Below are positions 7,355 to 54,270 of a stretch of 54,827 nucleotides of DNA, in pieces; position 1 is the first letter of the stretch, and each line of letters starts with the position of its first letter. The stretch lies in contig NMRA01000546.1 in assembly GCA_002633005.1 (NCBI GenBank), positions 59,967 through 114,793 on the forward strand, read 5' to 3'. The DNA is from Phoronis australis. Lineage: Eukaryota > Animalia > Phoronida. The notes under the pieces are model-generated. The model had not been told where the DNA came from. It saw only the letters and a list, made by a program, of their open reading frames with translations, and made no database searches. A program made the translations under genes and the position numbers.

Positions 7355-7506
7355 ATATTTTAATGCTTTATTATTATATGGTTAAAACCGAGCTGAGTAG
7401 CTAGGAACCTGGCTCAAGAGTTCAGCAGTGTGACTCGCAGGTTTGACTCGAACCCACGACCTGAGTACAGAAAGCGGGCACTTATCAAACAGGCCACCCT
7501 GCCTCC
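7355..7506 (-). mobile_element. tRNA-derived SINE, copy 1
   Basis: Minus strand reads GGAGGCAGGGTGGCCTGTTTGATAAGTG (A box)...GGTTCGAGTC (B box); near-identical to 30485-30634. Confidence 0.75.
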
Positions 7507-9672: not shown

Positions 9673-9738
9673 ATGGCAGCAAAAAAGGCAAGACGCGAAC
9701 CTAAAAGATACCTCCTCACCGAAGATGAAAAGAAAAAG
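9673..9738 (+). CDS. Putative exon 1 (MAAKKARREPKRYLLTEDEKKK)
   Basis: aagATGG start context, 22 open codons, donor AAG|gtaggt in phase 0; reads into exon 2 as the first helix of an ankyrin N-cap. Confidence 0.65.
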
Positions 9739-12700: not shown

Positions 12701-15700
12701 GCAATATGGTGAAGTCTTGCTTTTTAACGGGGGTCCTAGCGTTACTGAACGAGAGGCAGGTTCAAGTAGATTCACCCGCCCGCGTTGAATAGTACTGTAT
12801 ATGCAATGGGATGTAACCCTGCCAATACACGTTGAATTGTATATGCAATGTGATGTAACCTGCCAATACACGTTGAATTGTATATGCAATGGGATGTAAC
12901 CCTCCCAATACACGTTGAATTGTATATGCAATGCGATGTAACCCTGCCAATACACGTTAAATTGCATATGCAATGCGATGTACCCCTGCCAATACACGTC
13001 GCTTTTTGACACCACCAAAATCAAAATCAGGAAGCCATCAAATGCGACCAACAACGTTAATCCTAACTGTTTGTCTATTACCCGTGTACCTACATGCATG
13101 TGCTCCTATAGCATTCAGTACATACATGTATGTTTTCCTCTTCCAAGGCATACTGACTGTGCTGGAGCTTTACCGGAATGTTGATTCATTTTGACTTTCC
13201 ATTAGTGGTCAACAGTAATACATGTAGTTTCAACAAGTCGACACATCTCGCACTAAAAGTCAGCATTTATTTGTCCACCACACCCCACATATCTGTATGT
13301 TTTTGTAGACAGGGATAAAGTACGCATTGATATTTTACTTGTGAATATTTTTCAAAATGAAATTAACCGTATTTCGAAACACTGATTTTTGCAAAACAGT
13401 AAAACAGCTTTGTCCCTTCACAGTGAAAATGTAGACAACTGATAGTTGGAGGAGACATTCGCTTTAAAGAAAAAGATTAGTGTATAGAAATCTTCTACTG
13501 ATTATCGTCCAAGCATTTCAACTGTATGATCCAAAGAGATTCATCGGTGTCACGGCGGCCTTACAGATTGTTCTTTTTTCAACCATATTCGCTCTGTGTT
13601 TCAGAATTTGAAAGGTATATATATACCCGTGTTTTGTATGAAAATAACTTGACGTAAAACCAGTCATTATTCAAGCAGTCTGATCTCACTGTCTCTCGAT
13701 ATATTTCTCCCATTTCTAGATCAGTGAGAAATGAGAGAGGGTGCTCGACTGCAGCGTTGTAATCACGTGGACATTAGGATGCTAAACCATTTAGATATTG
13801 AACCCAAAAAAGTGACTGATATGCGAGGGAGCAGTTTTCATGAAAAGGTCCAAGGAAAGTTTATGAACTGCATTTCTATTGGTGTTTGAAATAGACAAAT
13901 GTAGTACACATTTTCCGGTGAAATTGTGTACTCCAAAATGAGTTTTTTGTGGAAAATCCAATCGACAAAAGTTCTGTTTTGTTGGTAACTTTGTCAATAA
14001 ATCCCCTTCAAGGGTTTTTGTTGGAACTGATATGCGCTACCTTTGTAAGGAGGCAAGTTCTAAAACTTTCACCCATCTGAGCGTCACGCCTCCGGTAACA
14101 ATCCAGTTTACTTTTTCAAATAACAGGCAACGCTGCTTACGCCCTATATGTAGATCTTTGTTTTCTTTCACCTTCATAAGGGTCGTATTCTCGTTCTAGC
14201 GATGATCTACAAAAGTCAATGTGGAATTCACAACACCGCGTTGTGACAACAAATACTCACTGAACATAGTGGTCCGGGAAAATTTGTTACTAGTTAACTC
14301 CACCATCTCCCCCAAAACAGCTGGAGCTCTCAGTACATGAGCGGAGTATCAAAGCGTATTTGGACATATGGCAAAGTTTTACGTAATTATGCATGTGCCC
14401 ACTGCCAGGAATAATTCGAAGCTCTTTGAGACCTACATGAAACAAATAATTTCATTCGGTTACGCTATATAATATTTTCAAAAATTATTTAAAGGCCGAT
14501 GCTCTTTTATTCATCTATTGTATAAAATGCATAGTTTGCACAAACTCCGTCTTCCCAACTCCACTACAGACCTTCGTTGGCCCGTTTCGGCACTGCCTTG
14601 GTCCCAGGTGTTGCACCGGCCCCCTATTTGGATTCAAGGTGTTCTAGGAAAAAGCAGGCATGCGAATGTAGTTTTTAGTGGCTCAGATTTCCAGCGCCCC
14701 ATGCGCTGGATCACCGGTTCGGGTACGACACTAATATCGTAAATGCGGGGATGCTCAAACAATGTTTAAATGGCACTTGGAAGTATGAAGCAATGAAATG
14801 ACTCGATGGCGATAGCACATGTACCCTGGGTGAAATATAATTCATATTGGTTCGTTATTATTTTCAGGTTATAAAAGCAGTGGAAGATGGCGACTGTGCG
14901 CCTATTCAGAAATTGATCAAGAATAAAAGGAACCTTAACCAACCACTGTACAGATATGTAAGTATGCATACTTGAACACTCCCCTAAAATGAGCCTTGAA
15001 AATATTTTTTACAACCGTTACCTTTCAAATTAAATGACTTTATGTTGAATATTATGTTTGTCGCCAAAACATGTTAACAATTTTATTGCCATAGCAGATG
15101 GGATTAATCGATTCCATCACTTTGTTGTCTATTAGTTACAAAAAAACATTTAATTTTATTCATTTGTTATTGGGTTTGACGTACACGTAATTTGACCTCA
15201 TATGACCTTGAGGTTCCCTACCATTAACATAAATATTCATTTCTCAATCTGATCACTTTTTGGACTTTGCGCTTTCAGAGAAAAGAAGTCTTAAGTGCTC
15301 CTCTCGCGGTCCACCAGTTACTGAGAGAGCTAGTGTTAGTGTTAAAACGTTATTATCAATTGCATACTGAGCATAACCTGGGCAAAGACAGGACGACATT
15401 CTTTCTATTACGAATGCTAAGTTCAGTCGCTACATGTATATAGAGCTCCTACAAATACGCATACTATTTACTTTTGTCTAGAATCTTTTGGAATATTGTG
15501 AGTCCAATCCCGTGTTTGCGAGTCATTGAACGGTGTTTGCAAGTACGTGAGTCGTGTTTTTACGTCCGTGACCTTGTTTAGGGAGTCCGTTAACCGTGCA
15601 GTTTAGATACATGCCTTGTTTTTGTTCCATAAACGTATTATCAATGTCGTAAATCATGAGAAGCTGACACGTAAACAAAACCTCTGCATACTTAAGTAAT

Positions 15701-21700: not shown

Positions 21701-24700
21701 ATAATAAAACCAGGCGACCTCGTAAGTTTTACCCATATAATCGCTGCTTTCATATAGAGCACATTTGATTTCAACATTGCTGTGTATTACGTCGTATTTT
21801 ATGTCAAAAATTATTTTCCGGCAAACTACATTCCGTCCTGTTTAGCCGGTTAAAAAACAAAATATCAATTAATTTTTTTACTCCGATCCAATTGATGTTT
21901 AAAGATTATTATTAAGTTTGAATAAAGTCACGTTATTGTCACTAAAAGTGATATACTGTAGCTTGGTTTAGCTATAACTAGTCGTCCAGACTTTGATAAA
22001 AGTTTTCATATTTCTAAGAACATGTATGTCTTCGCACTGAGAATTATTAACATTAACAAACAAACTACGAGAGTGTAACCTTATTCTTTAAAATGATGAT
22101 CTATTCCAACCACGAGTAATATATTACCTAGTAAACAAAATAGATTTGGTAATTGTGTGTACAATTGTGATATTTCAACCTTTGCATGACGAGTAATTAA
22201 GATTCACAGTGAAGTTAGTGATTGTGAAGTTTGCTATAACCTGTTCATTGTTTCTGCAGCGCCAGACAGCACTTCACCTGGCAGCAGTGAGGGGCAGGAC
22301 GGAGGTGGTGAGGGTGCTGGTGCAGGGTGGGGCCGATGTAGACGTGCAAGATGAGGTAACAGAAACTAATTGAGACGAAATTAGAATTAAGACAATGTTA
22401 TCTTTATTACAAAAGCTGTAGCCTTTCTGAAAATTAAATAAAATATTTTGTGTGTAAATACACTTTTCATATCTCATGATTTCAACAAGTATTTTTCAAT
22501 ATGTACAGTGTACATGCATCTTAAGAAACATTGAGGTTTGAATTGTGTCAACAATATATTTGTCGACTTAACGTTGATACTTTTCTATTCTTAATGACAA
22601 TCGTCCATTCAACATTACAACTTTATATTAGACCCAAAGCCAGAAAATCGGTGAAGAAATACAACATGGCGGGATCGCTGTCAAGTTATGGAGGAACTCT
22701 GTAATTTCTGGCATTCGATGTCTGCAACATGTTCTGTTGTTACAGCAAAATTTTAAAATTACCTGTAACACTTGAATGTTGAAATCATTACAAGTATTGA
22801 AGCGTCTAAGAGGGGTCAATAATGTCTCATTTATATCACCTTAGAAGTTCACTTAACCCCGTGTATGTTAATTAGCTCTAAACGTTGATTGTCCATTCAC
22901 ACATCTCCATTGTATATTACATAGCGGGACTGGACACCGCTGGAGATGGCAGCATGGCATGGTCATACAGACACAGCGGAGGTGCTGTTGTCCAACAAGG
23001 CCAGTGTAGATGTACGTGATAAGGTAAGTAATGACACACTGGTTGTTTAGTCGAACTAGTTGTTTACACAAGGAAAGTTTAAAATGTTTACTGACATATA
23101 TCCTTGATCTTTTTCTCAATTTAATGTCCCAAAAGCGCGACAAATTAAATGTCGTCTGCTTAACATTCGTGAACAGCCAAAGCTGCGTAGACTAGTAAAG
23201 ACAAAGCAGAGTGACTTACGTGTACAGGTTAAATGATACATAAGGTAATTAAACTGTCCCTAATGCGTTTGAACCAAACGAACATTACACTGCGATAGTC
23301 CAACACTTTACACAAGTTCACTTTCCCCAGGGTATGTTAATTAGCTCTAAACGTTGATCGTCCATTCACACATCTCCATTTTATATTACATAGGAGGGCC
23401 GGACACCGCTGTACAGGGCAGCAGTGGGTGGTCGTCCACAGGCAGTGAAGCTGCTGTTGGAGAAAAAGGCCAGTGTAGATATACGTGGTGCGGTAAGTAA
23501 TGACACACAGGTTGTTTAGTTGAACTAGTTGTTAACAAACAAGATGATTACAACTGTTTAGGAACAAATTTTGTTGATATTTTTTCACAATTTATTGTCC
23601 TAAAACAATGACAAGTTCAATGCCGTCTGCTTTTGTTGATGAAGAACCAAAGCTGCGTAGAGTTGTAACATGCTCTGTAACGTTTTAAAATCTGCAACAC
23701 TTGATTCTTGAAATAAGTATTGTAGAGTCTTAGAGGGGTCAGTAATTTTTCATTTATGTCACCTTACAAGTTTACTTTACCCCGTTCATGGTAATTAGCT
23801 CTGAACGTTCATCGTCCATTCACACATCTTCATTATATATTACATAGGCGGGCCTGACACCGCTGTACGAGGCAGCAGAGCGTGGTGATACACAGACAGT
23901 GGAGTTATTGTTGGCCAACAAGGCCACTGTAGATGTACGTGATAAGGTAAGTAATGACACACAGATTGTTTAGTTGAACTAGTTGTTAACACAAGGATAG
24001 TTTAAAATGTTTAGTTACATATTTCCTTGATCTTTTTCTCAATTTAATGTCCCAAAAGCGCGACAAATTAAATGTTGTCTGCTTAACATTCGTGAACCCC
24101 CAAAGCTTCGTAGACTAGTAAAGACAAGGCAGTGTGACTCACCTGTACAAGTTAAATGATATATAAAATAATTAAACTGTCCCTAATGAGTTCGAACCAA
24201 ACGAACATTACACTGCGATAGTCCAACACTTTACACAAGTTCACTTTCCCCGTTTATGTTAATTAGCTCTAAACGTTGATCGTCCATTCACACATCTCCG
24301 TTATATATTACATAGGTGGGCCGGACACCGCTGTACGTGGCAGCAGGGCGTGGTCATACAGACACAGTGAAGGTGCTGTTGGCCAACAAGGCCAGTGTAG
24401 ATGTACGTGATGATCAGGTAAGTAATGATATACGGGTTTTTTAGTTGAACTAGTTGTTAACACAATGATGTTGAACACACAGCATGTGACTTGGCTGAAT
24501 CATTCAATGATTTAATTAATCGTGATTTATGATTTCATTTTAAACATGGACATTTTTGTTGCATTCCACCGCACGTGACGTGACGTGCACGCGACTTTAA
24601 CTAATTATAAACAGTTTTTAGTTCACCTAGACTTGCACAGGGACTTGGTTCTTTACTTGCATTACCACAGCACTCATTAAATGAATGTCGATCTGTTGTA

Positions 24701-27700
24701 TTGTATAAGATCTAGTTGTTGTATTTGAAACACTCTTTTCAATCACGTGACTATATCAGATCAGAGGAACTTTTAAAAATCCCACGCAAGTTATGTCTGA
24801 GTTTAAATGTCAGGTTGTAGTCCGTCCTGTTAAGTCACACCATTCATCAGTATTGCAACTGGTGTTGAAGTTTGAACTGGAAAAGTATAAAACTCGACGA
24901 CTTGATCACCCACCCACATCACTACTGTATAATGCTGATCAACATTATCTATTTTTATTCACTTACTGTAGTGGGGCAACACACCGCTGCACGTGGCATC
25001 TGCAGGTGGACATACAGAGGTATTGAAACTACTGTGCATGGAAAGCGGATGCGCCATAAATGCTGTCAACAAGGTATTGCAAGAGTGTTGTACTCTTTGA
25101 ATAGTTAAGACTGCAATAAATGTGTTTTGGACTATGAGTTCGAGAATCTATTCTTTCGTAATAAATATCTCGTCAAAAATGATCTGTCTCCTACTTACAA
25201 AGAATCTCTTCTTCACTCCATGTACCTCCCCAGATCACTCAGTGATTCAAAGCAGCTTGTCTAATCGTATTAATTTGGCATAAATAAAAACAGACCGAAC
25301 GCGCCATCAATGGTCGACAACAGCCACAGGTTCAGATTTCCTCTATTCATTAATTATAACACATGCAGGTTTTTAATCGGTTCACTGCAAGGAATCAGAT
25401 GCGAGTTTAGGAAGGAAATCTTGGAACGTTTTAGTCTTGCTTAGATTAATATAACGATAATTTAGCAATCAATTTATCCATGCGTCCCATGGCTTAACTG
25501 TACATGTATTGCAACCCCACCACACAACAGTGTTTGTTCCTGCCATGGTCGGATTTACTATTCTAAGAAGTTGAAATCTAGGGCGTGACTGAGGCAAAGT
25601 CCCGGGCAGTCCGTCGAAAGCACAAGTCCTTTTACCAGGGTGCCAAGCCGAGCACTCTGAACCTAGTAAACGAGCTGTGATCCACAATACATGTAAATCC
25701 AAAATATGTGTATACATGTGCAGGTACTTTAAATTGTGTATACACTGAAGCTGGTTTGTTTACGATTTTTGCGTGAATTTTGTTGTCGGAAACAGTACCA
25801 TGTTTTTTACCTGTCGTCTGCTTCACTTGTTTCAAAAATATGGCATCGTGCTTCATCTCGTTGATCTCTCGTCTTTTTGTTATGTAAGCAAGTTTTATTG
25901 TTTAGCTGCGGAAACTTTTAAAGCTATACGGTCGTATTTCATCATTTCAATGCGGAGCTTGTTTTGTCGTACGTGATTTCTTTTTGAAACATCTTGAATA
26001 GGAATGGACGTGATTTTTGTTGATGGCTACGTTATCAAAAGTTTCATGTGTCAAACATACATTAGCCACTCCAAATATCTCATTTACTGCTTTTAAATTG
26101 TACAACAGAAACTTCAAAATGATGTAGGAACTTATCCGAGGTCCACCACATTGGAGAATGAATACATGTACGCCTGATGTTCGGAACTGATTTTACAGTT
26201 TTGTGGGTAGTGCTCACACGGTACTCTGAGTTTGAGGATTTGTTCATTTATCAACAAACTATTCCATCAAAAAGACCTACATCTTGCTTTAAAACCACTT
26301 CTGTACATATTTCAGTTATTAAATCGAAGCGCCATTGATTTATTTATATGCCATGAAATGTGTTGGTGAAAGCCATTTTCATTCAAACTGCTATTTCTGC
26401 CCTATGCGCAAGCCAGTGATGTCAGGCTATTTTGCTCTGGGAATCCCTTCATAATCACCACATGCAGTAACAAAACGATGAATACTGACTGTTTGTTATA
26501 AGTGACACGTTTTGTACCCTTAAAATATCAACACAATTATTTAAGTTTGCCAATTTCAAGCTGAAAGAATTCAAATTTATGCCGGGATATCTTGCACAAA
26601 AATAGATTAATTACGAATGGGTGCCTGAACGTGTGAAACCCTTGCTTTCCTAGAATTTTGCAAACTCGCAAGGAAATAACAGATTATTTCCTTTGCTCAG
26701 TTGCACTTGATTCAGTTATTTTAGTTGACCAAAGTGAATACGTTTTGGAATCAATTTTATCATTTTGTTTTTTTTTCGGACATAGGCAGATACATTTGCG
26801 TAAATGTTGTTTCACATCTTGAGCTTAACATCATTTTGCTTCACTCTTAACTTAAACAATGCAAATGCCAAAAGTGAAAAATGTCACGGTAGGGCAGACA
26901 GTGTAAAAATAGTTATAACTTGGTGCCAAACACACCACGGTGAGTCGTCTAGCGCTCGTGAGCTATCATTCAAACTCGTACTAAACAACCCACTTTACTT
27001 TTTCATCACATGTTCAAGTCATGTGGCCTCAGAATATTTTAGATTATTGAGCAACTATAGTAAAAGTATTTGCCTATATCCGTGCAATAAATTTAAAAAA
27101 AAATGAAAAGTTGGCGCTGGGAAATGATCCAATACATTGTTTTTCCGATAGAGTACAGTACAATTGCCAATTATACTGATCGTGGCCAACTGTCGTATTT
27201 TTTGTTTTGTCCAGCAGTGCACACCGTGAAAATGTTTAGGTTTACTGACTCATGGTAAAACCGGCACGTTACATGCTATAGCCCTCACTTTCAGTTCTGC
27301 TAAAGAAAAAAGGCACTCATATATTTCCAGTCGGCTAAACACAAAAGTTTCGAGCTGTTGTGGTCATTACTGCACTCGTAATGTTCGTTCGACTAAACGG
27401 GTCGTTTCTTCAGTTGCTACGATTATCTCACCCGTTTTCTGGTAGACCCAGATTTACCGCTTTATATCAAGTTTTCAATTTCCCTTCTCTAATACTGAGA
27501 ACTATTCAGTAGCTGAACTAAATAACATTGACTATGTGTCATGAATATTGTTATTTTGTTAGTTTTCAAAGCGCCGACTCCTTAGTGTCTCTTGTTTACA
27601 GGAATCCTAAGTGTCGACGTTTTTACAGTTGATGAAGAAATTCATTTCTCAGATTAATACGCATGCCAGTAGTGCCTGTACTTTCCTCAAGCGTTCAAAT

Positions 27701-33700: not shown

Positions 33701-36700
33701 CAAATAATTATTTATTTTGAGAATTTGAATAAAACGTGAAGTATACAAGAAAGGTAATGAGATGCTAAGAAATATCCCCTGAAACCCCTGGTTCGCTTGG
33801 TACTTTAAAACAATGGAAACAGTGGATTTTGAAGATGATCATCTAGATTTTTGAAGTTCTTTAATCATTTTTTAAAATAAAATTGAAAAAATTCTTACCT
33901 CATGTCTTGCACTCTGGCCCACGGGGTCTAATCTCTAAGTACAGATGCACTCAAATCTGTCACCCTGTTTATCTGGTTAAAAACGAAGTTCAAGTTGGTG
34001 GGCATTATTGGCGTGAAATCGCAACTTATGAGATGACCAACTCGAGTTGAAGGCAATGAGTACACTTGTGCTACTTTCGAGTGCACAACTTATGGTATGG
34101 CCAACACCAAAGAATGATGATATAGATGTCATTGTTGTTGACAGAAATGGAATCCTATCGCAGAAAGGAATATTATGAAGGCCTAATTTCATTGAAAACA
34201 TCTACTCTGTCTGCGCTGTTAACAGAACTATCTCAGAAATTTCTCACCCGTAAATTAATGAATATGCCATAACACAATTTAGTCGCACCATTGCAATCCA
34301 ATGAAGGAGCGACTGAAGTGTCCTCTTAAAATTCCGAAGTTGAACCGGCGTGAAACCAATCTATCATATTAAAAACAACTTTGAAATGGTGGGTCAAATG
34401 TCACACTGTTTAGAGGTTTAATGGCCAAGTACCAAAATCTAGAAAACGAAGAGTCTGTAAAATCACCGATTGAGAAATGTCAGAGAAAATGGTCTTATTG
34501 CCAGATGGGCTGTGAATACAAAGTCTGAATAAGGTCCGACTTTTGTAAAATGATTTTCTTGTTTTCCCACTGTTTTTAATAATGATGATTGCGGTACAAC
34601 GTTTCTCCTATCTTGAGTCTGAAAATATGTCATGTTGTATTTTTCAGTTTTGACACTTCCGTTCATACTGCGGTCCTTATGATTTTTCCTTTATTGGCAA
34701 TTCCATTTTTAATCCATTGCAACGTACTTCTTCAGATTATTTCATAACAAGTAAGCTCTCTGTGCCTTTGTTTCGTGTAACATCAACCAAGCCTACATAT
34801 CATGTTGGAACAAAAATGGACTTTTAGACTGTTGGTGGCCCTGTTATTAGAAAATACCTCTGTGAAAGAAAACAATCCAAACAATACACTAATCACGTGG
34901 TCAAATGTGGACCAGTAATATCACATATTGTTTTGTAACTCAGCAAAAATAGTCTAGTCTCAGATTACGACATTAAATTACCGTGGAACACCAAAAATAT
35001 CACAGTCCATAAATGACTTAACACGTTGCTTAAAAAGGTGTTTGTGAGCGTATTATCATGATGAAATAACTAACGTGAAACCTACTTTGAGTTTTGCTCG
35101 TGGGCCGTAAAACGAGTGGCGCTGTCGTCTGAAATAACGAGCGGAAATCAACAATTGATCGAACTTCAAAACCACTTGCTGGAATGCAAAACCCAGTGAC
35201 CGGTGGTCCAACTTGTGGGACTCCTATACTAGATGGTTGCATCTAACTGCGGGTTGGCCTGACCTAAACTGGATTGGCTAGTGCTCAAATACACATCAGG
35301 GTCTACACGTTGAAAGCGAGTCTCTGAGGCGGTCAGGCCGTCGTGTTTTATCTCCAACCAACTAGATATACCACCGGCCAATGTATCGGTTCCAACCAAC
35401 CATTTCTTGTGTGATTTCATCACGTTTTGAAGTCCGGACAACACGTTTGATTTACCGGACATTTGGTTCTGCAGTCCAACCGAGTGTCCGGGCAAACGGT
35501 TTTGAAATCCGACAAATAGCCGACATCCCCATGAATAAGGTTTTGGATGAATTTATACAAAATGCAAAACAGGCAAGTTCTACTGATTTTATAGTCACGA
35601 TTTTAGGGTGTGGATCCAGGTGTTTCATTCTGCAAGATTCAGAAACCGTTATTTTTTGCTTTGACAGTGGACTGTGAGAAAGTGATTTGATGAAGCAAAT
35701 GTGGACTTCACGAGTGATGACATTTGGCAGTGGACTGTGAGAAAGTGATTTGACGAAGCAAATGTGGACTTCACGAATGATGAAATTTGACAGTGGACTG
35801 TGAGAAAGTGATTTGACGAAGCAAATGTGGACTTCACGAGTGATGATATTTGGCCAAAAGACACTGTATCTCACCTTGAGTCTTTCCACTTGTCGTACAT
35901 GTATGTTAGAGGTGGTATAGGTTCTCCAAATGTTATGGTTCTATAGAACTGTTTCACACCATTGAAAATATCGACTTTCCAATCGCAAAACTTCTTCACT
36001 AAATCTCTTATGTCCAGCATGTCACAATCTCATGGGTTCAAAATAAGTTTACTCTCAGTCTCGTTCTTGCCGTGCTTTGTATACACTACATCCATCACAC
36101 GGTACATTATGTTCCGCAGCATACCTTCATGTAACCCAGCATCTCCACATGTACACTGTGCTGCATGTTTCTACACCACTCCTTCGTGTAACCCAGCATC
36201 ACCAGTGTAGACTGTATGTTCTACACCACCCCTTCGTGTAACCCAGCATCACCACTGTACACTGTATGTTCTACACCACTCCTTCGTGTAACCCAGCCTC
36301 ATCGCGTGTACAATGTACACTGTACACTTTATGTTCTACAGCACTTCTTGTAACCCAGCATCACCAGTGTACATGTACGGTGTACGTTCTACACCACTCC
36401 TTCGTGTAACCCACCACTAGCGTTCGTCATAATTTTACTGCCATTCTCGTACTAACCGTGCCTTGATTAAAACATTGCACCAATCATACGATACATTATG
36501 TTCCATAGCAAACCTTCGTGTAACCCAGCATCACCACGAGCCATTGGCGAAATATATAAAGTCGAATCCTCCCATTTAATTGCTGCCAATAATTTCACAA
36601 AAAGCAGAAAGTAGTATGTTCATGTCTATGTAAGATTAATAAACATGTGTGGTCATTTGATGTGATCTTCGTCTTTCATTCAAACTTTTTGTTACAGAAT

Positions 36701-37106
36701 GGAGAAACCGCTTACGACGTTTGTGGACGTGAAGGCAATGTCGACGAATCAACTGTCGAAAACATAAAGGGATTCTTAAAGGTAGAATTCAAGAAGATTT
36801 TCGGATGATTAGTGAATAATTCTAAGATATTGTTGACGGTATTTGTGTGATAATCTTGTGGTTTTAATCATTGGACTCTCTTTTGTGAATTTTTCACAAT
36901 TTCGAATACAGCACCTAATACCGCATGGACGCAAATTTGCGGAATTTCCTATAAAAAATGAAGAGTAGCTGCAAATTTGGGTGTAGGCATTTCCATCGTT
37001 TTTAAAACTTATCTGGTAATTGAAAATCCCGGTGGTCTTACTTTAAAATGACAATCGACCACAAAGATTGGCATTTCTAATTTCAAAATAAAATAAAACA
37101 CACGTG

Positions 37107-37157
<51 letters not shown>

Positions 37158-43100: not shown

Positions 43101-46100
43101 TCATCCATCCACTGGGGAAAACGTGACACTCCTAGGGACATGAACACAGCACTCCGTTGGCATGTTGTATTCTGAACTTCATGAAAAATCATGATCGGAT
43201 TACTTTACAGCTATCGTAGTGTTGCGACATTTCGACGACATGTCGCCGACATAGTCGCTTGACAAATCCATCGCATCTTAAAAGATTCCAACACAATTAA
43301 TTCAATTCTCTGATTTCGTTAAAAGTTGAAATCACATATAATAAGCATGTAAATAGTTATGACGTAAAACATTCCCTTGCCATGATGACATTCATTTGTA
43401 GAGTGCTGAGCTGCATTTGAAGTACAGTGATCACGGATTGGAAAGGCAAGACAGTTGCATGGTTCTGAGTATTGAACGGCGTTTTTGGCTTGTACATGTA
43501 AATGCTCTCTACAGTGTACGCATATGATCTTTGAAGCCAGAGAAAGGAAGTCCTATTGTGTTAACAAAATTTGGAGACCCATTCAATTAGGATAAGTTAC
43601 ATGTGCTTAGTTTTGATTTTCCTATTGAGACAGACAATCAGCGAGCACTGCACATTTAGTTGTTTGAGAATTGTTAAATTTCGTTAGACCGATACCTCTT
43701 ATTTATTATCACAGGATGAAGAAAAATCCGAGGAAGTTGCACGGGAAAATGATCACCAATCCAATGCCATCTACCTTAAGCTGCCTTCTAGCGATGTGGT
43801 ACGTAATCAGAATTGTATGGAAAAGCTGGCATGAATGAACTTTTCTCACCAAAATTTCAAAACTCGTCGACGTTTATATGCGCCCACATATTTATATATG
43901 GGCGCATTATGCCGTCATCTCCGTCCGTTCGTCCGTCCAGCATCCGTCCGGTGTCCGCTAATTCATCTCCAAAACCTTTTGACATACGTTCATGAAATTT
44001 GGCACATGTGTTCCATTCATTAATGGGACGGCATGAGCGAAATTTGGAACAGATCCGACTACCGGTGTGCCCCCTAGTGGCAATTTTAGTTTTTTTACGC
44101 TAACCTTTGTATCTTCAAAAATCCTGAACGGATTTTCATGAAATTTGATATGTATGCACCTATTAGTGAGATGACGGATTTGACTTAGTTAACGCCATCT
44201 AGTGGCCATTTTTACTGCTTTCGAGTATGTCTTTTTGCGTCCACCCCTCTATCAACCAAACCGCTCAAAGGATGTTTGTGAAAATTGGCCTGTATGTGCT
44301 TACTATAAAGAGGACGGTTGATGATGAATATTCTGACGATTTTGACTACTGTGGCGCCTCCTAGTGGCATTTTTGCGCCTATGTCTGTATCTCCTAAACC
44401 ATTTTCAGGATCTTTACGAAATTTAGTAAGTGTATTTATATGATGTTAACAACAGATGACGACGACTTTTGGACGGATCCAACTACCGGTGTGCCCCATA
44501 GTGGCAATTTTATTTTTTACGTTTTCCTTTTGTATCTTCAAAAGTCCTTAACGGATTTTCATGAAATTTAATAAGTAAGCACCTACATGTATTATTGAAA
44601 TGACGCTATCCTTCCGTTTTTGGATGGATTTGACGCAATTTGCGCCACCTAGTGGGCATTTTACTGTATTCGAATCTGTTTTTTTGCGTCTACCCCTCTA
44701 TCAACCAAACCGCTCAAAGGATGAATGTGGAAATTGGCATGTATGTGAGGACGATGGATGATGATTTTCCGACGATTTCGTCTACTGTGGCGACTCCAAT
44801 TGGTAGTTTTGTTTTTGTTGCGTCTAGGGCTATATCTCCTAAACCGTTCACAGGAATTTAGCAAGTGTATTTATATGATGTTGACTACGCATGACGACGA
44901 CTTTCAGACAGATCTGACTACTGCTATGCCCCCTAGTGACAATTTTAGTTTTTTACGTTTCACTCAGTATCTTCAAAGGCGGATTCAACAGACACTGTGC
45001 CCACTAGTAGCAATTTCATTTTATTCTGTTTTCCTTTGTTTCTCTGAAGTTCCTTGACAGATTTTTATAAAATATGGCATGTTCCTGTTTTTGGATGGAT
45101 TGTATGTTTTTGCGCCATCTAGTGACTGTTTTTATGATACAAATAAATAACCTTAAAAGCACATCATTTACAATGCATTCGTGAAACATAAACAGAAGGA
45201 ACTATTGGTCGCTATTCTATGTTTAGAACCTGGGTAAAATTCACATTTTATTATAAAATAAACACTTAAATATTACGGTTTTGGATTGTGAAACGCTATC
45301 ATGAAGTTTGTCATTTACTTGTCTCCTTGTCTCATTTGATAGATGGATGGAAGAGATGCATCTACCTTGAAGGTGCAAACCTCCCATTTAATGTACTCCA
45401 TACACGTGTGTGCCTAATATCTTCAAATATTTTGGCATTTCTTTCATGAAACGCCGGGCTAAAAAGTATTGCCAATATAACAAAAAGCAATCGATTTAAC
45501 GCAGTTTTGTTGATTTACGAAAAGCTTGATTTCATAACTGGTCTCAGAAACTTACATCTCGACATAGGAGACACCGCAAATCTGTGTAATTACTGTGCAA
45601 TTTGATAGGGTACCCTTTGATGTGTTCTTACTAATGTTAAAGGGTGCTTAGTTAAAGGCTTACAGTTCATTCAAAGTAAACCTTCTTTTCCTGCAGATGA
45701 TCCACGTCTCTCAAACCGTATCCGGCGAAAATCCAACTGGAGCCACTGACTCTCTTGGGTACCATGACTACGCTGACGCATTAGCGGATTTTTTATTGGA
45801 TCACGAGCTAAGCACTGGAACTACAATCGGTCTTCTTGGCAACTGGGGGGCTGGAAAAACGTTCTTGTTGAACATGTTGAAGAAACGAATAATGGAGAAA
45901 AACGCTGGTAATAATTTAAAATATTTTTGACAAACAACCGCCAGACCCGTTTCAATGAAACCGCTTTTGGTCACGAGGCACCGTTACAGGCAATTGCTAT
46001 TACGTCGTTCATCCAGCCGTGTTGTATCAAAATATTTTTGGCAATGGGATGCCTTAAATACGACGCGCTTTTCCTCTACAAATGGAACCGTTTCTCTGAA

Positions 46101-49100
46101 TGAGCAGGAAATTCAATGACTAGAATTCGACATTGGCTACGTGTGTTACTGCAGGCTTCACGGTAAGGAGAGATAAACTGGAAGTTTTCGTCTCAGGGGT
46201 CGGAGCTCTGCCTCCAAGACGCCTAGTCGGTACAGGCCGCGTCGCTCAGTTGCCTTTTTAGGTAATCCCATAGTGCACTGATTGCCAGGGCCAGGTCTCT
46301 TATCTTTGTACTCAAAATGAACTCGAAATTATTTTTGGCAATTTCACTGCTCCTATTGCGGGAGCTTAAGATAAGTGGTTATCAGGCTGTGCTCGAATAC
46401 ATCATAACTTATGCATATGAGTTTACAGTTCATCATAATTATGCATATGAGTTTACAGTTCATCATAATTATGCATATGAGTTTACAGTTCATCATAACT
46501 TATGCATATGAGTTTACAGTTCATCATAACTTATGCATATGAGTTTACAGTTCATCATAACTTATGCATATGAGTTTACAGTTCATCATAACTTATGCAT
46601 ATGAGTTTACAGTTCATCATAACTTATGCATATGAGTTTCCAGTTCAAGTTCGCACTTGAAAACCCTGATGTTCGTGCTCGAAACACAAGTAGAAACTCG
46701 AAATTTCGAGTTCAAACTTGAACTTTTATCTTTCATATTGGGTTTATAAACTGCAAACTAAGGCTATTTATATCATCCATGTAAGTCATTATGTACTCCA
46801 GCACAGAATAATAGACACTTATCTTGAATTCACAGTAAAGTAGAGTAGAATAATGCCGAACATAATTTTGAGTTACATTTCCAGTAAAGGACTGGAAACC
46901 GGGCCAGGGATACATGTAGGTTGTTTTGTCCTCGGCAATGAAGTTTGGCCACCGTGTATAGAACATGATTGGGACGTGAATGGAAATAAGTAACACTGGT
47001 CTGTGGTCTCATCGGTGCGTGCTGCATGGGCGGCCCAGCACTGAAAAGTGAGGGCGTGGCTATAGCCTCCCAACTCCCATAGACCATTGGCGCCGGAGCC
47101 TTGTAAAGTGGGGGATATAGCCCCCGACAGTCCCTTATGCTTCGCCGCTTATGTGCTGATATGGAGTGGTGCTGGGAAGCCCTGCTATCATAACCCGAAA
47201 AAATAAGGATTTTTGAAAAAGGTCTTCTTTCAGCTGGACTTGAAGCACATTTATACCGAAAAGTTCCCATTCATTTTATACTGAAGCAAAGAAAAAATGA
47301 TTGAGAACCTTATCAAAAAATTGTTCCGATGTCTTTCCAAATAAGAAATAAACGGGCCACAAGCAACGTGAATCTCCCTGTTTTCGCGTAAAATACGCGA
47401 TCACTAACGGGACTACGTCACAGCCAACAATGGCATGTCTGACGTGGAAATTATATGTGTGTGATATTTCAGGTTCACATTGTTTTTTACAAAACCTCTC
47501 TATTGTAATGGTGGGCGAGATACGTATTCGATTCTGATCTGCGAATGCTGACTCCCGTTCAGTAACGCTAGGACCTCGCTAAAAAGCAAGACTTCGCGAG
47601 ATTACGTGAGATATTGCCATGCATTTTAAATAAGAACATTTGACTTTGACTAGGTTTTAGCTAGGTCCTAGTGTAGGTCCTAGCGTCTACTGAATGCACG
47701 CCTGGTAACGGCTACCTTAAGTAGCATAGCTCGTAAAATATTAATTATTGTTTTTGCATTTCTTTGGTTTCAGATGACAAAACCCAGAAAATAAAGTGGA
47801 GTGTTGAGGAGTGGAGGGCATACCCTTTGTGGGCTTATTTCGTCACGGTGTGCTGCATTCTCGCCGTTATAACTGGCTGGACGTGGCTCGCTGTACTGTT
47901 GGAAGCAGACGCCTTTGAAGACCTTGATTTCTATCTCTACGTTAGTACAAGGAACATCTGTATAGTTGTGATGCTCATTACAATTGTGCTTTGTTATCAG
48001 GTTTATTTACTTTGTCATTCACGGATGCGATTTCTATTCACCGGAACAGTGGTGGTCATTGTCTTTACTGTAGTTTTATACCTTTGTTCACCTGATCACC
48101 TTGCAGTCCTTTCCAACATGAGCAAGCTTTTTCGTTTCGCGAAGAGTGCATTACCCGATCGCCTTGCGGCCTTCACCAACGTGAACAAGCTTTTGCTTCA
48201 GGTGATGAGTACGTATTCTCTCGTGATTTCCACATCAATTGTTGTGCTCATTCATTTGGTATCCAGGTTTGTGAAGCACTTGGAAAACTTCCTAAAGATC
48301 GTACTTCTCGTCTTTTGCCAAACGCCTCCGTCACCCACTGAGAAGGCTAAAGTAAAGATAATTGAAGTTCAGTTTAGTGCTTGGGAATATGCAGGTTCTG
48401 ATTTTCTTTGGGCAGGTATTGTATGTAACATGTCTGCTAAAGTGGAGGAGTATTTTGGATTCTGGAAAACAAGACTGTTTCAGGTTTTTCATGCGTTGAC
48501 AGACATGTCAGTGGTGGATGATGAAGAACCGAATGTATCAGCAGACAGCCAGTACGTGAACATTCGACTACGACGAATTTCATCCTTACCCTGCTATGTA
48601 GTGGCTTGGTTCTGTTTCTGTGGGACGTCAGCCTTTTGTATTAGGGGTTTTGTTACGCTTGCTAAAAAATATTTCCCAGATGAAGCATTTCCTGCCGTAA
48701 TTTTTTCAGTGATACTTCTTGTGGTGAGCAAATACAGCGCCATCAAATCATACCTGGTATCACCGGCGCAGCGTATAATGAACATGTACAAATCGTTTTC
48801 AAATTCTTCATTTGAAGAAGAGCTGGGTTTCATGTATCGAGTGAAGGGGGAAATAAATAATTTAGCTAAGTTTATCAAATACATGAATTGCGTCGACCAA
48901 AGGCATTATCGCCTGTTGATAGTAATCGATGACATTGATCGTTTAGAGAAGAAAAAGATCCGTAAAATTTTACAAGCAGTGAATGTTCTCCTATCTGACT
49001 CATCCCATCCTTTTATTTCGATTCTAGCCATTGACCCCAGAATTGCAGAATCCGCTGTAGAGCAGTCTTTCATGTCGAACAGGAGCTCCAAATCCTCTGA

Positions 49101-49926
49101 TCTAAGTGGCCATGAATACTTGAAGAAAATTGTCCACCTTCCTTTCTTTATACCTGTACCGAACAGACATGATGTCAGAGTTTTTTATCAGGCTTTGACG
49201 AAAGGGAGTGATAGCTCTGATTCCGCATACAACAGAAGTAAAATTGAAAGTAAACGAGGTGAATTAGCTGGAGTTAATACTGGCGGTGAAGAAGGACGTA
49301 GAGTAGGAGGAGAAGCAGGGAGAAGAATAGTAGAACTGAAGAAACAAAATGGGGAGGAAATAATGGGAAGAGATAAAAAACAAGATAAATATGGTGAAAC
49401 AACCGATATCAGGGATAGGGTCTCTAGAGACGATAAGCAGGCGGTAGCAGTAGCCATCGAAGAATACGACAAATGTGCCCAGTTTATTTATCGCAATCCA
49501 AGGAGCATGAAACGAATATTTAACGTCATGATGCTAACCTTGAAATTGTTTTGGAAAAATGAAATTAAACGAAAAGAAGACATCTCGGATTTGGCGATGT
49601 GGACGATATTATCAGAACAGTGGCCATGTGCAGCAAATTGGTTGGTCGCAATTTACGAGGATGAGAAAAATAATATTTCCTCAGATACTTGTGTTGTTGA
49701 TCTTTTTGAAGGTAAAGAAGACGAACTGCATGAAATTAAAAAGACACCTGTTTTTGAAAGTATGGATCGCAATTCGGAAACGTTTTTTTCGTTTCTACGC
49801 ACTCACCCGCGGAATGCCAGCGACTTGATGAAATTTACATCTGTTTCTGTCAACACCGATCACAGCATCAGAGATAAAATAGCAAGAATGAGGAGAAAAC
49901 GCGAGCATAGTTCTGTTAACACGTAA
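9673..49926 (+). CDS. Multi-exon gene: ankyrin-repeat, transmembrane KAP-family P-loop NTPase (NKPD1/Kidins220-like), ~1,095-1,115 aa; join(9673-9738,14868-14957,22260-22355,22925-23023,23394-23492,23848-23946,24316-24417,24972-25073,36698-36781,43715-43798,[45343-45372 or 45405],45697-45907,47774-49926)
   Basis: Exons read by hand with AG/GT boundaries. Phases are all compatible (phase 0 throughout, phase 1 between 45907 and 47774). The spliced product is stop-free and reads as ankyrin repeats followed by KAP motifs GxWGxGKT, FSAWEYA, hhhhDDhDR, YLKKIVHLPF, NPRxxKR and EQWP. Confidence 0.85.
10181..10376. repeat. Minisatellite, 50-bp unit x4
   Basis: tatactaaagttgtccactgttatcctgttactgac... 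starts at 10181, 10231, 10281, 10331. Confidence 0.95.
10467..10498 (+). promoter_or_regulatory. Composite CRE-like / NF-kB / CRE element in intron 1
   Basis: TTACGTCA (10467), GGGAATTTCC (10481-10490) directly abutting TGACGTCA (10491-10498). Confidence 0.45.
10979..11108. repeat. Minisatellite, 41-bp unit x3
   Basis: catcaccaaacctctgcacgctactatgtagacg.actgaa repeated. Confidence 0.9.
12603..12759 (+). mobile_element. MITE (Harbinger-like), copy 1
   Basis: Imperfect TIRs tcagtagcgctaggacc ... ggtcctagcgttactga, CWG at both ends; inverted second copy at 47548-47704. Confidence 0.65.
12797..13000. repeat. Minisatellite, ~42-bp unit x5
   Basis: gtatatgcaatg.gatgtaaccctgccaatacacgttgaatt repeated; explains the repetitive ORFs 12653-13099 and 12762-12950. 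Confidence 0.95.
14868..14957 (+). CDS. Exon 2, ankyrin N-cap (VIKAVEDGDCAPIQKLIKNKRNLNQPLYRY)
   Basis: Acceptor ttattttcag|, donor TAT|gtaagt, 90 nt, phase 0-0; AVxxGD...LI pattern of a capping repeat, joining the RQTALHLAA of the next exon. Confidence 0.8.
16920..21180 (+). repeat. Diverged direct duplications in intron 2: ~16920-17360 vs ~19085-19473, and ~17838-18495 vs ~20512-21180
   Basis: Shared colinear words, e.g. cagaatta.tggaaacgtc, aacaaaacgcgtcaa, ttctctgttagtgttcttt; acgcattgtactt, gataaggaaatg.cc.tttaaatatatt.aagaac. Confidence 0.75.
18551..18624 (-). repeat. Interstitial telomeric-like (TTAGGG)n tract, ~12 units
   Basis: aaccctaaccctaaccctaacc... with degenerate units. Confidence 0.9.
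22260..22355 (+). CDS. Exon 3, ankyrin repeat (RQTALHLAAVRGRTEVVRVLVQGGADVDVQDE)
   Basis: tttctgcag| acceptor, GAG|gtaaca donor, 96 nt; canonical TALHLAA..G..EVV..L...GADV. Confidence 0.93.
22925..23023 (+). CDS. Exon 4, ankyrin cassette A (RDWTPLEMAAWHGHTDTAEVLLSNKASVDVRDK)
   Basis: tacatag| ... AAG|gtaagt, 99 nt = one 33-aa ankyrin repeat. Confidence 0.93.
23394..23492 (+). CDS. Exon 5, ankyrin cassette B (EGRTPLYRAAVGGRPQAVKLLLEKKASVDIRGA)
   Basis: tacatag| ... GCG|gtaagt, 99 nt, phase 0-0. Confidence 0.92.
23848..23946 (+). CDS. Exon 6, ankyrin cassette C (AGLTPLYEAAERGDTQTVELLLANKATVDVRDK)
   Basis: tacatag| ... AAG|gtaagt, 99 nt, phase 0-0. Confidence 0.93.
24316..24417 (+). CDS. Exon 7, ankyrin cassette D (VGRTPLYVAAGRGHTDTVKVLLANKASVDVRDDQ)
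   Basis: tacatag| ... CAG|gtaagt, 102 nt, phase 0-0. Confidence 0.93.
24972..25073 (+). CDS. Exon 8, ankyrin repeat (WGNTPLHVASAGGHTEVLKLLCMESGCAINAVNK)
   Basis: ttactgtag| ... AAG|gtattg, 102 nt; canonical GNTPLHVA..GH.EV.KLL. Confidence 0.93.
26750..30460 (+). repeat. Diverged ~500-bp direct repeat pair: ~26750-27260 and ~29973-30460
   Basis: Shared tcactcttaac.taaa.aatgcaaatg, ctcgtgagctatcattca, atagagtaca, aactgtcgtattttt, ccagcagtgcac. Confidence 0.75.
30485..30634 (+). mobile_element. tRNA-derived SINE, copy 2
   Basis: GGAGGCAGTGTGGCCTGGTTGATAAGTG...GGTTCAAGTCCC, then a non-tRNA tail (ttgagccagg...cagctcggttttaaccatata) shared with copy 1. Confidence 0.75.
35661..35853. repeat. Minisatellite, 63-bp unit x3
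   Basis: ttgacagtggactgtgagaaagtgatttgacgaagcaaatgtggacttcacg at 35661, 35724, 35787. Confidence 0.95.
36100..36538. repeat. Minisatellite, ~50-bp unit x~7
   Basis: ttctacaccactccttcgtgtaacccagcatcacc repeated with indels. Confidence 0.9.
36698..36781 (+). CDS. Exon 9, ankyrin C-cap (NGETAYDVCGREGNVDESTVENIKGFLK)
   Basis: tttttgttacag| ... AAG|gtagaa, 84 nt; joins as NAVNK|NGETAYDV, a typical terminal ankyrin half-repeat. Confidence 0.85.
37110..37158. repeat. (CA)n microsatellite
   Basis: Direct reading. Confidence 0.98.
37447..37630 (+). pseudogene. THAP zinc-finger remnant (transposase N-terminus)
   Basis: MLRCFVPACPN*...GITFFTFSR/ESEMLRKWL...KHLRVCRL: CxxxxC, F..F, KW and RVC motifs with one stop and one frameshift. 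Confidence 0.7.
38129..38865 (+). mobile_element. Interspersed repeat nested in the Kolobok element; second copy at 52337-53079
   Basis: Both start tgttaggggaatct and share tttggctcactagt.tagtattttc, tgtaggctacgg, cgtgttgtgaactgct, ctgccgtcag. Confidence 0.65.
40363..40610. mobile_element. PIF/Harbinger-type MITE
   Basis: TIR GGGCTCGTTCCAACAAAACTGACTTA vs TAAGTCAGTTTCTTGGAACAGGCCC; CTG duplicated on both sides; internal ttaag repeats. Confidence 0.8.
41610..42960 (+). repeat. ~280-bp direct repeat pair (~41610-41890 and ~42700-42960)
   Basis: Shared ttcctctccatc.g.tcacctactgtg, aattttgtttttatga.gtg.tcggatgtgc, ttacacagattaaga, atactgactttta. Confidence 0.8.
42383..42570 (+). repeat. Degenerate interstitial (TTAGGG)n tract
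   Basis: gttagggtt, gggttagggc, ggttagggttagggt, ggttagggctagttagag. Confidence 0.8.
43715..43798 (+). CDS. Exon 10, linker (DEEKSEEVARENDHQSNAIYLKLPSSDV)
   Basis: ttattatcacag| ... GTG|gtacgt, 84 nt, phase 0-0, open. No domain motif, so supported only by splice signals and phase. Confidence 0.6.
43873..45130 (+). mobile_element. HINE/DINE-like (non-autonomous Helentron) element with tandem core repeats
   Basis: 5' stem-loop atgcgcccacatatttatatatgggcgcat, (CCGT)n microsatellite, then ~130-160-bp cores containing ttcatgaaattt and gcc.c.tagtgg. Confidence 0.7.
45343..45372 (+). CDS. Possible small linker exon 11 (MDGRDASTLK; alternative in-phase donor after 45405)
   Basis: Long pyrimidine tract followed by gatag| acceptor; donors AAG|gtgcaa or CAC|gtgtgt both keep phase 0 but are weak. 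Confidence 0.35.
45697..45907 (+). CDS. Exon 12, KAP NTPase N-terminus with Walker A (D.LG...YA..LA..L ... TIGLLGNWGAGKTFLL)
   Basis: cttttcctgcag| acceptor; KAP-diagnostic GxWGxGKT; donor G|gtaata in phase 1 matches the next exon. Confidence 0.92.
46368..46827. mobile_element. Degenerate inverted-repeat element (MITE) containing a minisatellite
   Basis: aagataagtg...ctgtgctcgaatacatcataactta on the left matches the reverse complement of taagtcattatgtactccagcacag...cacttatctt on the right. Confidence 0.6.
46401..46646. repeat. Minisatellite, 30-31-bp unit x8
   Basis: atcataa(c)ttatgcatatgagtttacagttc, almost perfect copies. Confidence 0.98.
47548..47704 (-). mobile_element. MITE (Harbinger-like), copy 2
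   Basis: Reverse-complement match to 12603-12759. Confidence 0.65.
47774..49926 (+). CDS. Terminal exon: TM helices, KAP NTPase core (Walker B RLLIVIDDIDR) and C-terminal helical region
   Basis: 720-codon ORF in the track; real start is the acceptor tttggtttcag| at 47773 (phase 1). Motifs FSAWEYAGSDFLWAG, ELGFMYRVKGEI, PFISILAIDP, GHEYLKKIVHLPF, NPRSMKRIFN, WTILSEQWP. Confidence 0.95.
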
Positions 49927-53272: not shown

Positions 53273-54270
53273 ATGTACATGTATTCAACCATATTTATCA
53301 CTCAATTGGGAAGTTATACCCGAAAACTCATATACAAAGACCTTGGCTTGCTACGAGCCCATAATCTTACATTTACTCCTCATTGTCGCGAACTTGCTCA
53401 TCAAGTACAAAAATTAATTAATCCAATTATCTTTCGTCATCTCACCTCCATGCATCTTGAAACTCTGTTGAAGTCTTTTATACTTCCACATCTACTTTAC
53501 TGTGACATAATCTACCACTCCACAAACGCTGGCATACTTCTCCAAATAGAAAGACTACTTTACCAAGCAGCTTTAGCCATAACAGTAGCATACAGAGAAC
53601 CCAACACAGTCAAGGTTCTAAATAGTCTTAACTGGAGCAAACTAGCAACCTGTCGTAAACTCCACCTGTCCATGTATACATTCAACTCTTAAACAACATA
53701 TGATTTTCTAGCAAAATCCTCTTTGACTCATACAAAAGACTTAACACAAGACCAGAACTACGGCAATGCAATATGTTCACTATACCATCTTCCTTCTGCC
53801 AGTCGTTCGAGAGATCTGCGATAGTAATTTGCAATGACAACTGAAATTCCTTACCATGCAAAATAAAAGCGTCACTTTTAAAAATTACTTTAAACTGCAT
53901 ACCACAACTCAAGTCTTGCAGGTCCCAGTGACATCATTTCAACTTCCTAGCATCCTACACAGATCAAAATGCGGACTATTCCTAAACAACAAGAAATTAA
54001 GACATAATATTAATAATATTTCACCTCTGAAATACTGTGGAGACACTCAGACATATGCTTGTGTTTTTTTGCTCGCTAACTATGCAGGGTGCAGAGCGTA
54101 CAGCTTTTCCTCAATGTTTACAAAAATATTCTGATATTCCTCAAACGTATAACACAATGTAAACAACTCAACACAAAGGAAAATAAGGTTTTATTCGAAA
54201 AAATATTACATTTTCTTCTTAGTAACAAATTCCTTTGGGTGAGTCAATAAAATTGTATACATGTAAAATA
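53273..54270 (+). mobile_element. 5'-truncated, decayed LINE (CR1/L2 group) ORF2 C-terminus
   Basis: KDLG...LTFTPH...KSFILPHLLYCDIIY...IERLLYQAALAIT...LNWSKLATCRKLH, typical of the post-RT region; stops and frameshifts downstream. Confidence 0.8.

Follow-up and report, generated by a model that had tools for sequence, protein, structure and literature searches.

An ankyrin-KAP NTPase gene of Phoronis australis with diversifying ankyrin exons, a putative non-self sensor

Introduction

Can an animal use a KAP NTPase as an immune receptor? This question is raised by a gene of Phoronis australis in which a series of small ankyrin exons is followed by a membrane KAP NTPase. The gene lies in a stretch of 54,827 nucleotides (contig NMRA01000546.1, positions 59,967 to 114,793, forward strand), referred to here as the window, and all coordinates are those of the window. 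The animal KAP NTPases known are the neuronal scaffold Kidins220 and the little-studied NKPD1. In bacteria, KAP and YobI NTPases have recently been shown to act as phage sensors and effectors. An earlier note on this DNA had read the gene as a lineage-specific receptor analogous to the NOD-like receptors (NLRs). The analysis described below finds a SAM-less ankyrin-KAP gene with recently duplicated repeats that appear to diversify by selection, and expressed relatives of its ankyrin array. If the immune reading is true, a KAP gene with immune-receptor-like repeats would bring a bacterial defence module into animal innate immunity.

Gene Model and Exon Structure

The window has the base composition of eukaryotic DNA (about 38% G+C) and contains a single long open reading frame (ORF), at 47737-49926 on the plus strand. 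An exon model was built from a motif scan and by inspection of splice sites and frame. It places 13 exons on the plus strand, from an ATG at 9673 to a TAA at 49926, and encodes 1,104 amino acids (aa) with no internal stop. AG/GT was found at every exon boundary, and exons 1-11 have lengths divisible by three and phase 0, the sole exception being the junction between exons 12 and 13 (phase 1). The exons are as follows.

9673..9738 (+): exon 1, ATG and predicted basic leader of 22 aa (splice donor, frame)
14868..14957 (+): exon 2, 30 aa, likely N-terminal ankyrin cap (AG/GT, phase 0/0; weak tblastn match to exon 6, E 0.2)
22260..22355 (+): exon 3, ankyrin repeat 1, 32 aa (Pfam Ank, E 1e-9)
22925..23023 (+): exon 4, ankyrin repeat 2, tandem unit A (Pfam Ank; 469-bp tandem 22845-24472)
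23394..23492 (+): exon 5, ankyrin repeat 3, tandem unit B (Pfam Ank; 469-bp tandem)
23848..23946 (+): exon 6, ankyrin repeat 4, tandem unit A' (Pfam Ank; tblastn and self-comparison)
24316..24417 (+): exon 7, ankyrin repeat 5, tandem unit B', 34 aa (Pfam Ank)
24972..25073 (+): exon 8, ankyrin repeat 6, 34 aa, a different exon type (Pfam Ank)
36698..36781 (+): exon 9, C-terminal ankyrin cap with NGETAYDV (match to Kidins220)
43715..43798 (+): exon 10, uncertain linker candidate (splice sites, frame)
45343..45372 (+): exon 11, uncertain linker candidate of 10 aa (splice sites, frame)
45697..45907 (+): exon 12, start of KAP (DSLGY) and Walker A GNWGAGKT (Pfam KAP_NTPase 1-47)
47774..49926 (+): exon 13, hydrophobic inserts, Walker B, remainder of KAP, C-terminal helical domain and stop (Pfam KAP_NTPase 46-292, structure model, fold match)

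The ankyrin exons, E3 to E8, are 96-102 nt each with phase 0/0, and every repeat is therefore carried by one symmetric exon. Pfam Ank was above its cut-off in these six of the nine small exons tested, and no ankyrin family was found by Pfam at E<=0.1 in E2, E9 or E10. The array consists of six full repeats and two cap-like exons, E2 and E9, the motif NGETAYDV of the latter corresponding to AGETPYNI of Kidins220. The earlier count of about eight ankyrin units thus stands for the six Pfam Ank exons, while the remaining two are only cap-like and fall below Pfam detection. Exons 1 and 2 are predicted from splice sites and frame. The model is weakest at exons 10 and 11, uncertain candidates taken from splice sites and frame alone, and the length of the linker in homologues requires neither. 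Motif scan and tblastn revealed no additional ankyrin exon and no second copy of KAP in the window.

Duplication and Diversifying Selection in the Ankyrin Exons

Four of the ankyrin exons, E4-E7, arose through exon-plus-intron duplication. They sit in a 469-bp exon-plus-intron tandem (22845-24472), within which a block of two exons was duplicated (22751-23537 and 23683-24462, 87%), so that the pairs in register are E4/E6 and E5/E7. Between the register pairs, 34 of 141 replacement sites differ (24%), whereas only 3 of 51 silent sites do (6%; Fisher p=0.002). With differences at 26 of 369 positions (7%), the introns of these pairs have changed about as much as the silent sites, and replacement sites exceed the introns with p=4e-7. 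The other disjoint pairings of E4-E7 gave p=0.034 and 0.002, and third positions carry 5 of the 36 minimum changes (p=0.008). CpG hypermutation was considered as the source of the variation and rejected, since the replacement excess persists when CpG-type changes are left out (p=0.04); CpG-type differences number 1-4 per exon pair, and the observed-to-expected CpG ratio of the window is 0.89.

The changes are not spread evenly over the repeat. A framework of TPL, AA, G and LL is invariant across E4-E7, codons 1, 8 and 11 hold four residues in the four exons, and codons 3, 12, 14, 23 and 33 hold three. In an alignment, codons 3, 11 and 12 correspond to sites that vary between DARPin modules. 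An enrichment test found 12 of 31 changes at the six DARPin library positions (p=0.004 when all sites are counted). Moreover, the likeness of the exons is out of step with their duplication history, E4/E7 and E6/E7 being 87.5% alike and the register pair E4/E6 78%. For these four repeats, the counts show what is probably diversifying selection, acting mostly on the ankyrin binding face; the word hypervariable, used earlier for the array, is borne out for E4-E7 by this replacement excess.

The KAP NTPase Module

The KAP_NTPase profile of Pfam is split between two exons: exon 12 matches its positions 1-47 (E 5e-11, 42.7 bits) and exon 13 its positions 46-292 (E 9e-25, 88 bits), both above the cut-off of 20. 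Walker A (GNWGAGKT, aa 365) and Walker B (LLIVIDDIDR, of the hhhhDDxDR type, at about aa 768) are both intact. Hydropathy peaks at aa 402-555 and 659-713 correspond to about four hydrophobic segments that follow Walker A and two that precede Walker B, which suggests that membrane helices are inserted inside the NTPase domain, between the two Walker motifs. The layout described previously, ankyrin exons followed by a membrane KAP NTPase and no SAM, was therefore reproduced by the exon model, Pfam and hydropathy.

No SAM was matched by Pfam in exon 13 at E<=0.1, and tblastn with two Kidins220-type proteins found none 3' of the stop; both searches agree with the earlier statement that the gene ends with neither SAM nor long tail. 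Pfam gave no match to NACHT or NB-ARC in exons 12-13, none to a ROC-COR GTPase in the tested exons and none to an effector domain in the model, which has repeats at its N-terminus instead. A weak match to YobI was obtained (E 0.025). The gene is a member of the KAP family; it is neither an NLR nor a strict Kidins220 orthologue.

An AlphaFold2 model was made of exon 13 alone, that is, with the Walker A exon absent, and its first 110 residues are poor. Its mean predicted local distance difference test score is 75 and its predicted template-modelling score 0.70, with a confident P-loop core and C-terminal helical domain. A sequence search of the PDB with exon 13 gave no match. In a structural re-alignment the top rank was taken by RdrA of the RADAR defence system (Z 14.3, root-mean-square deviation 4.0, 228 aligned), followed by ORC subunits at 12.8; this match bears on fold, not on function.

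Expression of Related Ankyrin Arrays

Three raw-read RNA runs (X1-X3) and one contig set (X4) were chosen by species label, and the reads were aligned at 85% likeness to 22150-37050, a stretch reaching up to exon 9. Sense-strand depth was 6-70 in the ankyrin bins, 39-59 in the bin of exon 7 (reads of related copies included) and 5.4, 6.0 and 1.4 in the bin of exon 9. In X1 and X2, intron 8 was covered on the sense strand only, at a depth of 0-6 per bin outside repeat bins. No RNA dataset was listed as containing words matching exon 13.

The splice joints shown were 15 of 78, of which 13 fall at ankyrin exons. Among them, E7-type exons are joined to E7-type exons by 26 and 19 reads in X1, 28 and 21 in X2 and 4 in X3, and E8-type to E8-type exons by 13-24 reads in X1 and 9-22 in X2; joints of E7-type to E8-type are also present. 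Since the locus has one E8, transcripts with E8 in tandem must derive from alleles or loci other than this one. Joints from E3 to E7-type and from E4 to E8-type occur as well, with junction letters unlike the window, and may stem from other loci. Among the best 12 of 150 junction rows (11 from X4), all 12 are in frame. In these rows codon 1, read by hand, encodes M, L, G, R, V, W or S with a third base that is always G; in the window exons it encodes R, E, A, V or W, and its third base is also G.

A family of related ankyrin arrays, variable in the number and order of repeats, is thus shown to be expressed, whether as alleles or paralogues. The variability claimed for the repeats extends in this way to related transcripts.

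Two side observations were made in the same alignment. Intron 3 (22355-22917) matches an X4 contig at about 86% and up to 192 sense reads of X3, nearly all of them unlike the window; these matches are probably an expressed related copy, as a retained intron or an untranslated region of another locus. Over 25132-37050, X3 departs from X1 and X2 in being almost without coverage of intron 8 and in having no joint of two E8-type exons among those shown, a contrast of tissue or genotype.

Relatives and the Ankyrin-KAP Junction

An exhaustive search with exon 13 returned 2,576 clusters at E<=0.001, none of them a close relative. The best was the Lingula protein P0001, with 35% identity over the matched stretches and 28% by BLASTP. 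The ankyrin exons retrieved generic ankyrin proteins alone, and no close relative, in the best 120 of 130 matches. Of the 152 first-round homologues, 113 were scanned with Pfam (39 were left out), and names were looked up for 30 proteins. The homologues so analysed comprise Kidins220-type proteins (ANK-KAP-SAM), vertebrate NKPD1 and further lineages lacking SAM, namely amphioxus C2-ANK-KAP, hemichordate PAW-ANK-KAP, tunicate KAPs and Lingula, some of them with ankyrins. Animals had earlier been credited with Kidins220 and NKPD1 only, a view that these SAM-less KAPs contradict.

The end of exon 8 with exon 9 (NKNGETAYDV) and the start of exon 12 (ENPTGATDSLGY) match Kidins220 (NKAGETPYNI ... 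SPTETDGDMLGY) and amphioxus proteins. This match supports a single gene and suggests that ANK-KAP was most likely the ancestral animal layout. Together with the sense-only depth over intron 8 in X1 and X2, it is the reason for reading the ankyrins and KAP as parts of one predicted transcript. A lineage-specific ANK-KAP fusion, as proposed before, does not fit a junction sequence common to Kidins220. The fusion itself is not new, and SAM-less ANK-KAP proteins are already annotated in amphioxus and hemichordates.

A second search gave 26 hits, including eight Branchiostoma C2-ANK-KAP clusters, seven of which are 79-86% identical to the query. Two Branchiostoma lanceolatum models from two annotation sets, P0005 (XP_066275097.1) and P0297 (CAH1256141.1), carry (ANK-)KAP followed by NACHT and leucine-rich repeats (LRR). 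They are 96-99% alike in the first KAP part and 68-91% further on, and KAP occupies in them the place where amphioxus NLRs usually carry a death-fold domain. As gene models, they may represent either a real KAP-NLR hybrid or a mis-join.

Some other KAP proteins were noted in passing. PAW-like/ANK/KAP proteins of hemichordates are P0156, P0011 and P0166 (Saccoglossus) and P0018, P0300 and P0013 (Ptychodera, Glandiceps); one Saccoglossus model consists of two PAW-ANK-KAP copies head to tail and two other models are on contigs of equal length, which suggests that these genes form a tandem cluster. P0112 of B. belcheri has KAP and then OTU-like and EF-hand Pfam matches. A KAP clade from ENA (P0002-P0004, P0006, P0008, P0010 and P0014) has no Walker A match in the called ORF and several copies on megabase contigs; the missing Walker A would be expected if these genes share a separate Walker A exon.

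KAP Phylogeny

Trees of the KAP domain were built with FastTree (153 rows) and with IQ-TREE under LG+G4 (34 rows, 119 being left out); outgroup rows were taken as prokaryotic from their domains and sources, and P0117 and P0118 were labelled as Kidins220-type by length alone in the first tree. The window KAP forms a long branch that falls within the animal group (100/99), and in both trees it lies outside the supported clades of Kidins220, NKPD1, amphioxus, hemichordates and tunicates. Nesting within the bilaterian-type Kidins220 (seven rows, the cnidarian-type row excluded) was rejected by the approximately unbiased (AU) test (p=1.25e-7), and so was a single clade with the short-ANK KAPs of amphioxus and hemichordates (p=0.025). 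The best tree places it as sister to the whole Kidins220 clade, with a support of 55/47. The AU test did not reject a constraint grouping it with NKPD1 (p=0.059 and 0.28). The earlier denial that this is the conserved Kidins220 orthologue holds in the strict sense, given the rejected nesting and the lack of SAM and tail.

Comparison With Known Systems

The gene resembles Kidins220/ARMS in its N-terminal ankyrins, in a near-identical junction from cap to KAP and in a KAP with hydrophobic inserts. It differs in length (1,104 aa against 1,612-1,974 aa for the seven Kidins220 proteins in the tree), in lacking SAM and tail, and in its six repeats, four of which are recent duplicates under apparent diversifying selection. 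The Branchiostoma C2-ANK-KAP (XP_066286223.1) and hemichordate PAW-ANK-KAP proteins (XP_077866181.1, XP_070579626.1) share with it a short ankyrin array or cap before KAP and the lack of SAM. Lingula P0001 likewise has KAP without SAM, but shows no ankyrin; these SAM-less invertebrate KAPs are about 24-28% identical to the window protein. Vertebrate NKPD1 has the KAP domain in common with the gene and also a large last exon. Unlike the window gene, which has six Pfam Ank exons if the one-gene model holds, NKPD1 has no ankyrin family in P0021, P0025 and P0031, and many NKPD1-type homologues carry a SAM_KIDINS220 match whereas this gene is without SAM.

Among immune NTPases, fungal NLRs are reported to have ankyrin repeats that are near-identical, vary in number and have their variable positions on the inner helix and beta-hairpin, the same selection pattern as found here (Dyrka et al. 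2014, PMC4986451). Those receptors differ in their STAND (NACHT/NB-ARC) NTPase, in repeats placed C-terminally and in an effector at the N-terminus; here the array is N-terminal and exon-encoded, the NTPase is a membrane-type KAP and no effector domain is present. Another paper on fungal NLRs does not mention KAP (PMC12258605), and in one further paper KAP comes up a single time, for an NLR-like locus of a green alga (PMC7145615). The brown-algal ROCO-LRR proteins (PMC11378527; Zambounis et al. 2012 cited there) are also encoded with one repeat per symmetric exon, carry the repeats N-terminal to the NTPase and show selection on the concave, binding face, the difference being that LRR and a ROC-COR GTPase stand there in place of ankyrin and KAP.

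For bacteria, it is reported that Tmn, of the YobI family, uses a repeat arm to detect a phage protein and forms a decamer that exports Mg2+ (bioRxiv 2026.03.01.708804), and that KAP fusions protect against phage (PMC13552941). To this extent the link drawn earlier to bacterial KAP defence is supported by reports of KAP/YobI NTPases as anti-phage proteins. Tmn and EF_KAP are, like the window protein, P-loop NTPases with inserted membrane helices, and the repeat arm of Tmn is its sensor. Tmn, EF_KAP, PifA and RdrA differ in that their variable region is C-terminal and not ankyrin. The idea of KAP in place of NACHT/NB-ARC is reduced to an analogy, because the repeats are N-terminal and no effector domain was found; moreover, the two amphioxus models put KAP in front of NACHT-LRR. 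As a whole, the NLR-analogous receptor proposed in the earlier note is partly supported.

Proposed Function

A sensor or immune role is likely for this gene from its pattern of selection and its layout. More specifically, we give about even credence to the gene being a divergent SAM-less ankyrin-KAP NTPase that works as a non-self sensor in the manner of fungal NLRs or bacterial Tmn. In such a sensor, the cytosolic ankyrin face would bind a foreign-protein ligand, a non-self ligand being suggested by the selection pattern, and binding would switch on the KAP ATPase. By analogy with Tmn and RdrA, ATP-driven oligomerisation would then form a ring at the membrane. Because no effector domain is present, output would pass through the membrane helices or a partner; a self-formed ion channel as this output is doubtful. 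The steps beyond ligand binding are inferred from these comparisons. New specificities would arise from exon duplication, exchange between copies and point changes at a few codons.

A wider proposal is possible but is held here only tentatively. Beside NLRs and ROCOs, animals would have NTPase immune receptors of a third class in the form of membrane KAP NTPases related to the bacterial anti-phage KAP/Tmn proteins. In this lineage a family of them would have a DARPin-like repertoire of shuffled ankyrin exons and would kill or alarm the cell through their own membrane ring; in amphioxus the module would be wired to an NLR as its output.

A diversifying exon-modular ankyrin array on a KAP NTPase was not found described in the literature searched (main texts, with few subscription journals covered). 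The layout is already in public annotations, and the new part is the diversifying exon-modular array on KAP. The variable codons, a Walker A control and the amphioxus ANK-KAP-NACHT-LRR models are defined, which makes the idea open to testing.

Alternative Explanations

Several results weigh against the sensor reading. The selection test uses four repeats and pairwise counts, not a codon site model, and the enrichment at DARPin positions has p=0.063 when set against the 20 non-framework positions alone. The ankyrin region of the amphioxus C2-ANK-KAP proteins is conserved (76-91%), which means that a SAM-less ANK-KAP need not be hypervariable. Among the 15 of 78 joints shown there was neither an exact junction of the locus nor an E8-E9 joint, and no read from ankyrin to KAP was seen in an alignment that ended at exon 9. 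Reads at least 99% alike were 27 of 3,367 in X1, repeat-element reads included, so that most of the RNA signal comes from other alleles or loci. X4 is rich in ankyrin-type contigs and contains 0.00 of the exon-13 words; the variable arrays may therefore belong to other genes. Foldseek with the exon 13 model gave no match at E<=0.001, and the lead of RdrA over ORC in Z is small for a model without the Walker A exon.

The gene could also be a host signalling or trafficking scaffold of Kidins220 layout, with an ankyrin face that diversifies as the target or decoy of a parasite or tracks a fast-evolving endogenous partner. This is unlikely but has to be taken seriously: the ANK-KAP junction is common to Kidins220, the best tree puts the window KAP next to that clade, albeit unsupported, Pfam finds no effector domain, and positive selection alone cannot separate a sensor from a target. 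However, variation in repeat number and order among the expressed relatives is more to be expected of a repertoire than of one evading target, and SAM and tail, the known scaffolding parts of Kidins220, are lost here. A little less probable still is that the diversifying exons come from a separate genome-wide family of ankyrin arrays and entered this gene by exon shuffling or gene conversion, the selection having been earned elsewhere and the role of KAP being ordinary. Such an origin would agree with aligned reads that are mostly 90-95% alike or less, with the contig and deep reads matching intron 3, with the many ankyrin contigs of X4 and with exon likeness that departs from duplication history. 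The introns of A-B and A'-B', however, are 7% apart and the exons 17-22%, so that divergence or exchange postdates the formation of the copies in the window gene, and E8-type exons, which lead into the cap, belong to the expressed variable family.

That the model joins two neighbouring genes is improbable; one would carry the ankyrins alone (exons 1-8 or 1-9), and the other would be an NKPD1-like KAP gene with exon 11 or 12 as its first. Exons 11 and 12 both begin with ATG, exon 9 stands between introns of 11.6 kb and 6.9 kb, reading on from exons 8 and 9 without splicing meets a stop within 8 codons, and both the missing spanning read and the AU values for a grouping with NKPD1 would suit two genes. 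Exon 9 and the start of exon 12 nevertheless match the continuous cap-linker-KAP of Kidins220, amphioxus and hemichordate proteins, and intron 8 is covered on the sense strand alone. Very improbable is neutral variation, by relaxed constraint or CpG decay after exon duplication. Its appeal lies in the mere four copies and in the few CpG-type differences of each pair; it predicts equal rates, yet replacement change is about four times the silent and three times the intron rate, the excess outlasts the removal of CpG changes, the CpG ratio of the window is 0.89 and the framework residues are invariant.

Other Features of the Window

An assembly gap of 383 N lies upstream of the gene at about 5407-5789. 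A short dispersed repeat, resembling a short interspersed nuclear element, occurs at 30483-30668 and as an 87% inverted copy at 7355-7506, with very deep RNA on both strands. Older repeats, 65-83% alike and mostly intronic, were found at 16915-18495/19079-21180, 26708-27261/29931-30457 and 38129-38812/52337-53003, and further ones of the same likeness at 41606-41878/42696-42970, 44043-44977 and 12598-12759/47548-47709; none of these older repeats in the window carries an ankyrin exon. Degenerate telomere-like hexamer repeats lie in introns at 18551-18624 and about 42390-42560. Downstream of the gene, at 53273-53692 (+), an open frame of 139 aa resembles the C-terminal end of a reverse transcriptase of a long interspersed nuclear element (LINE).

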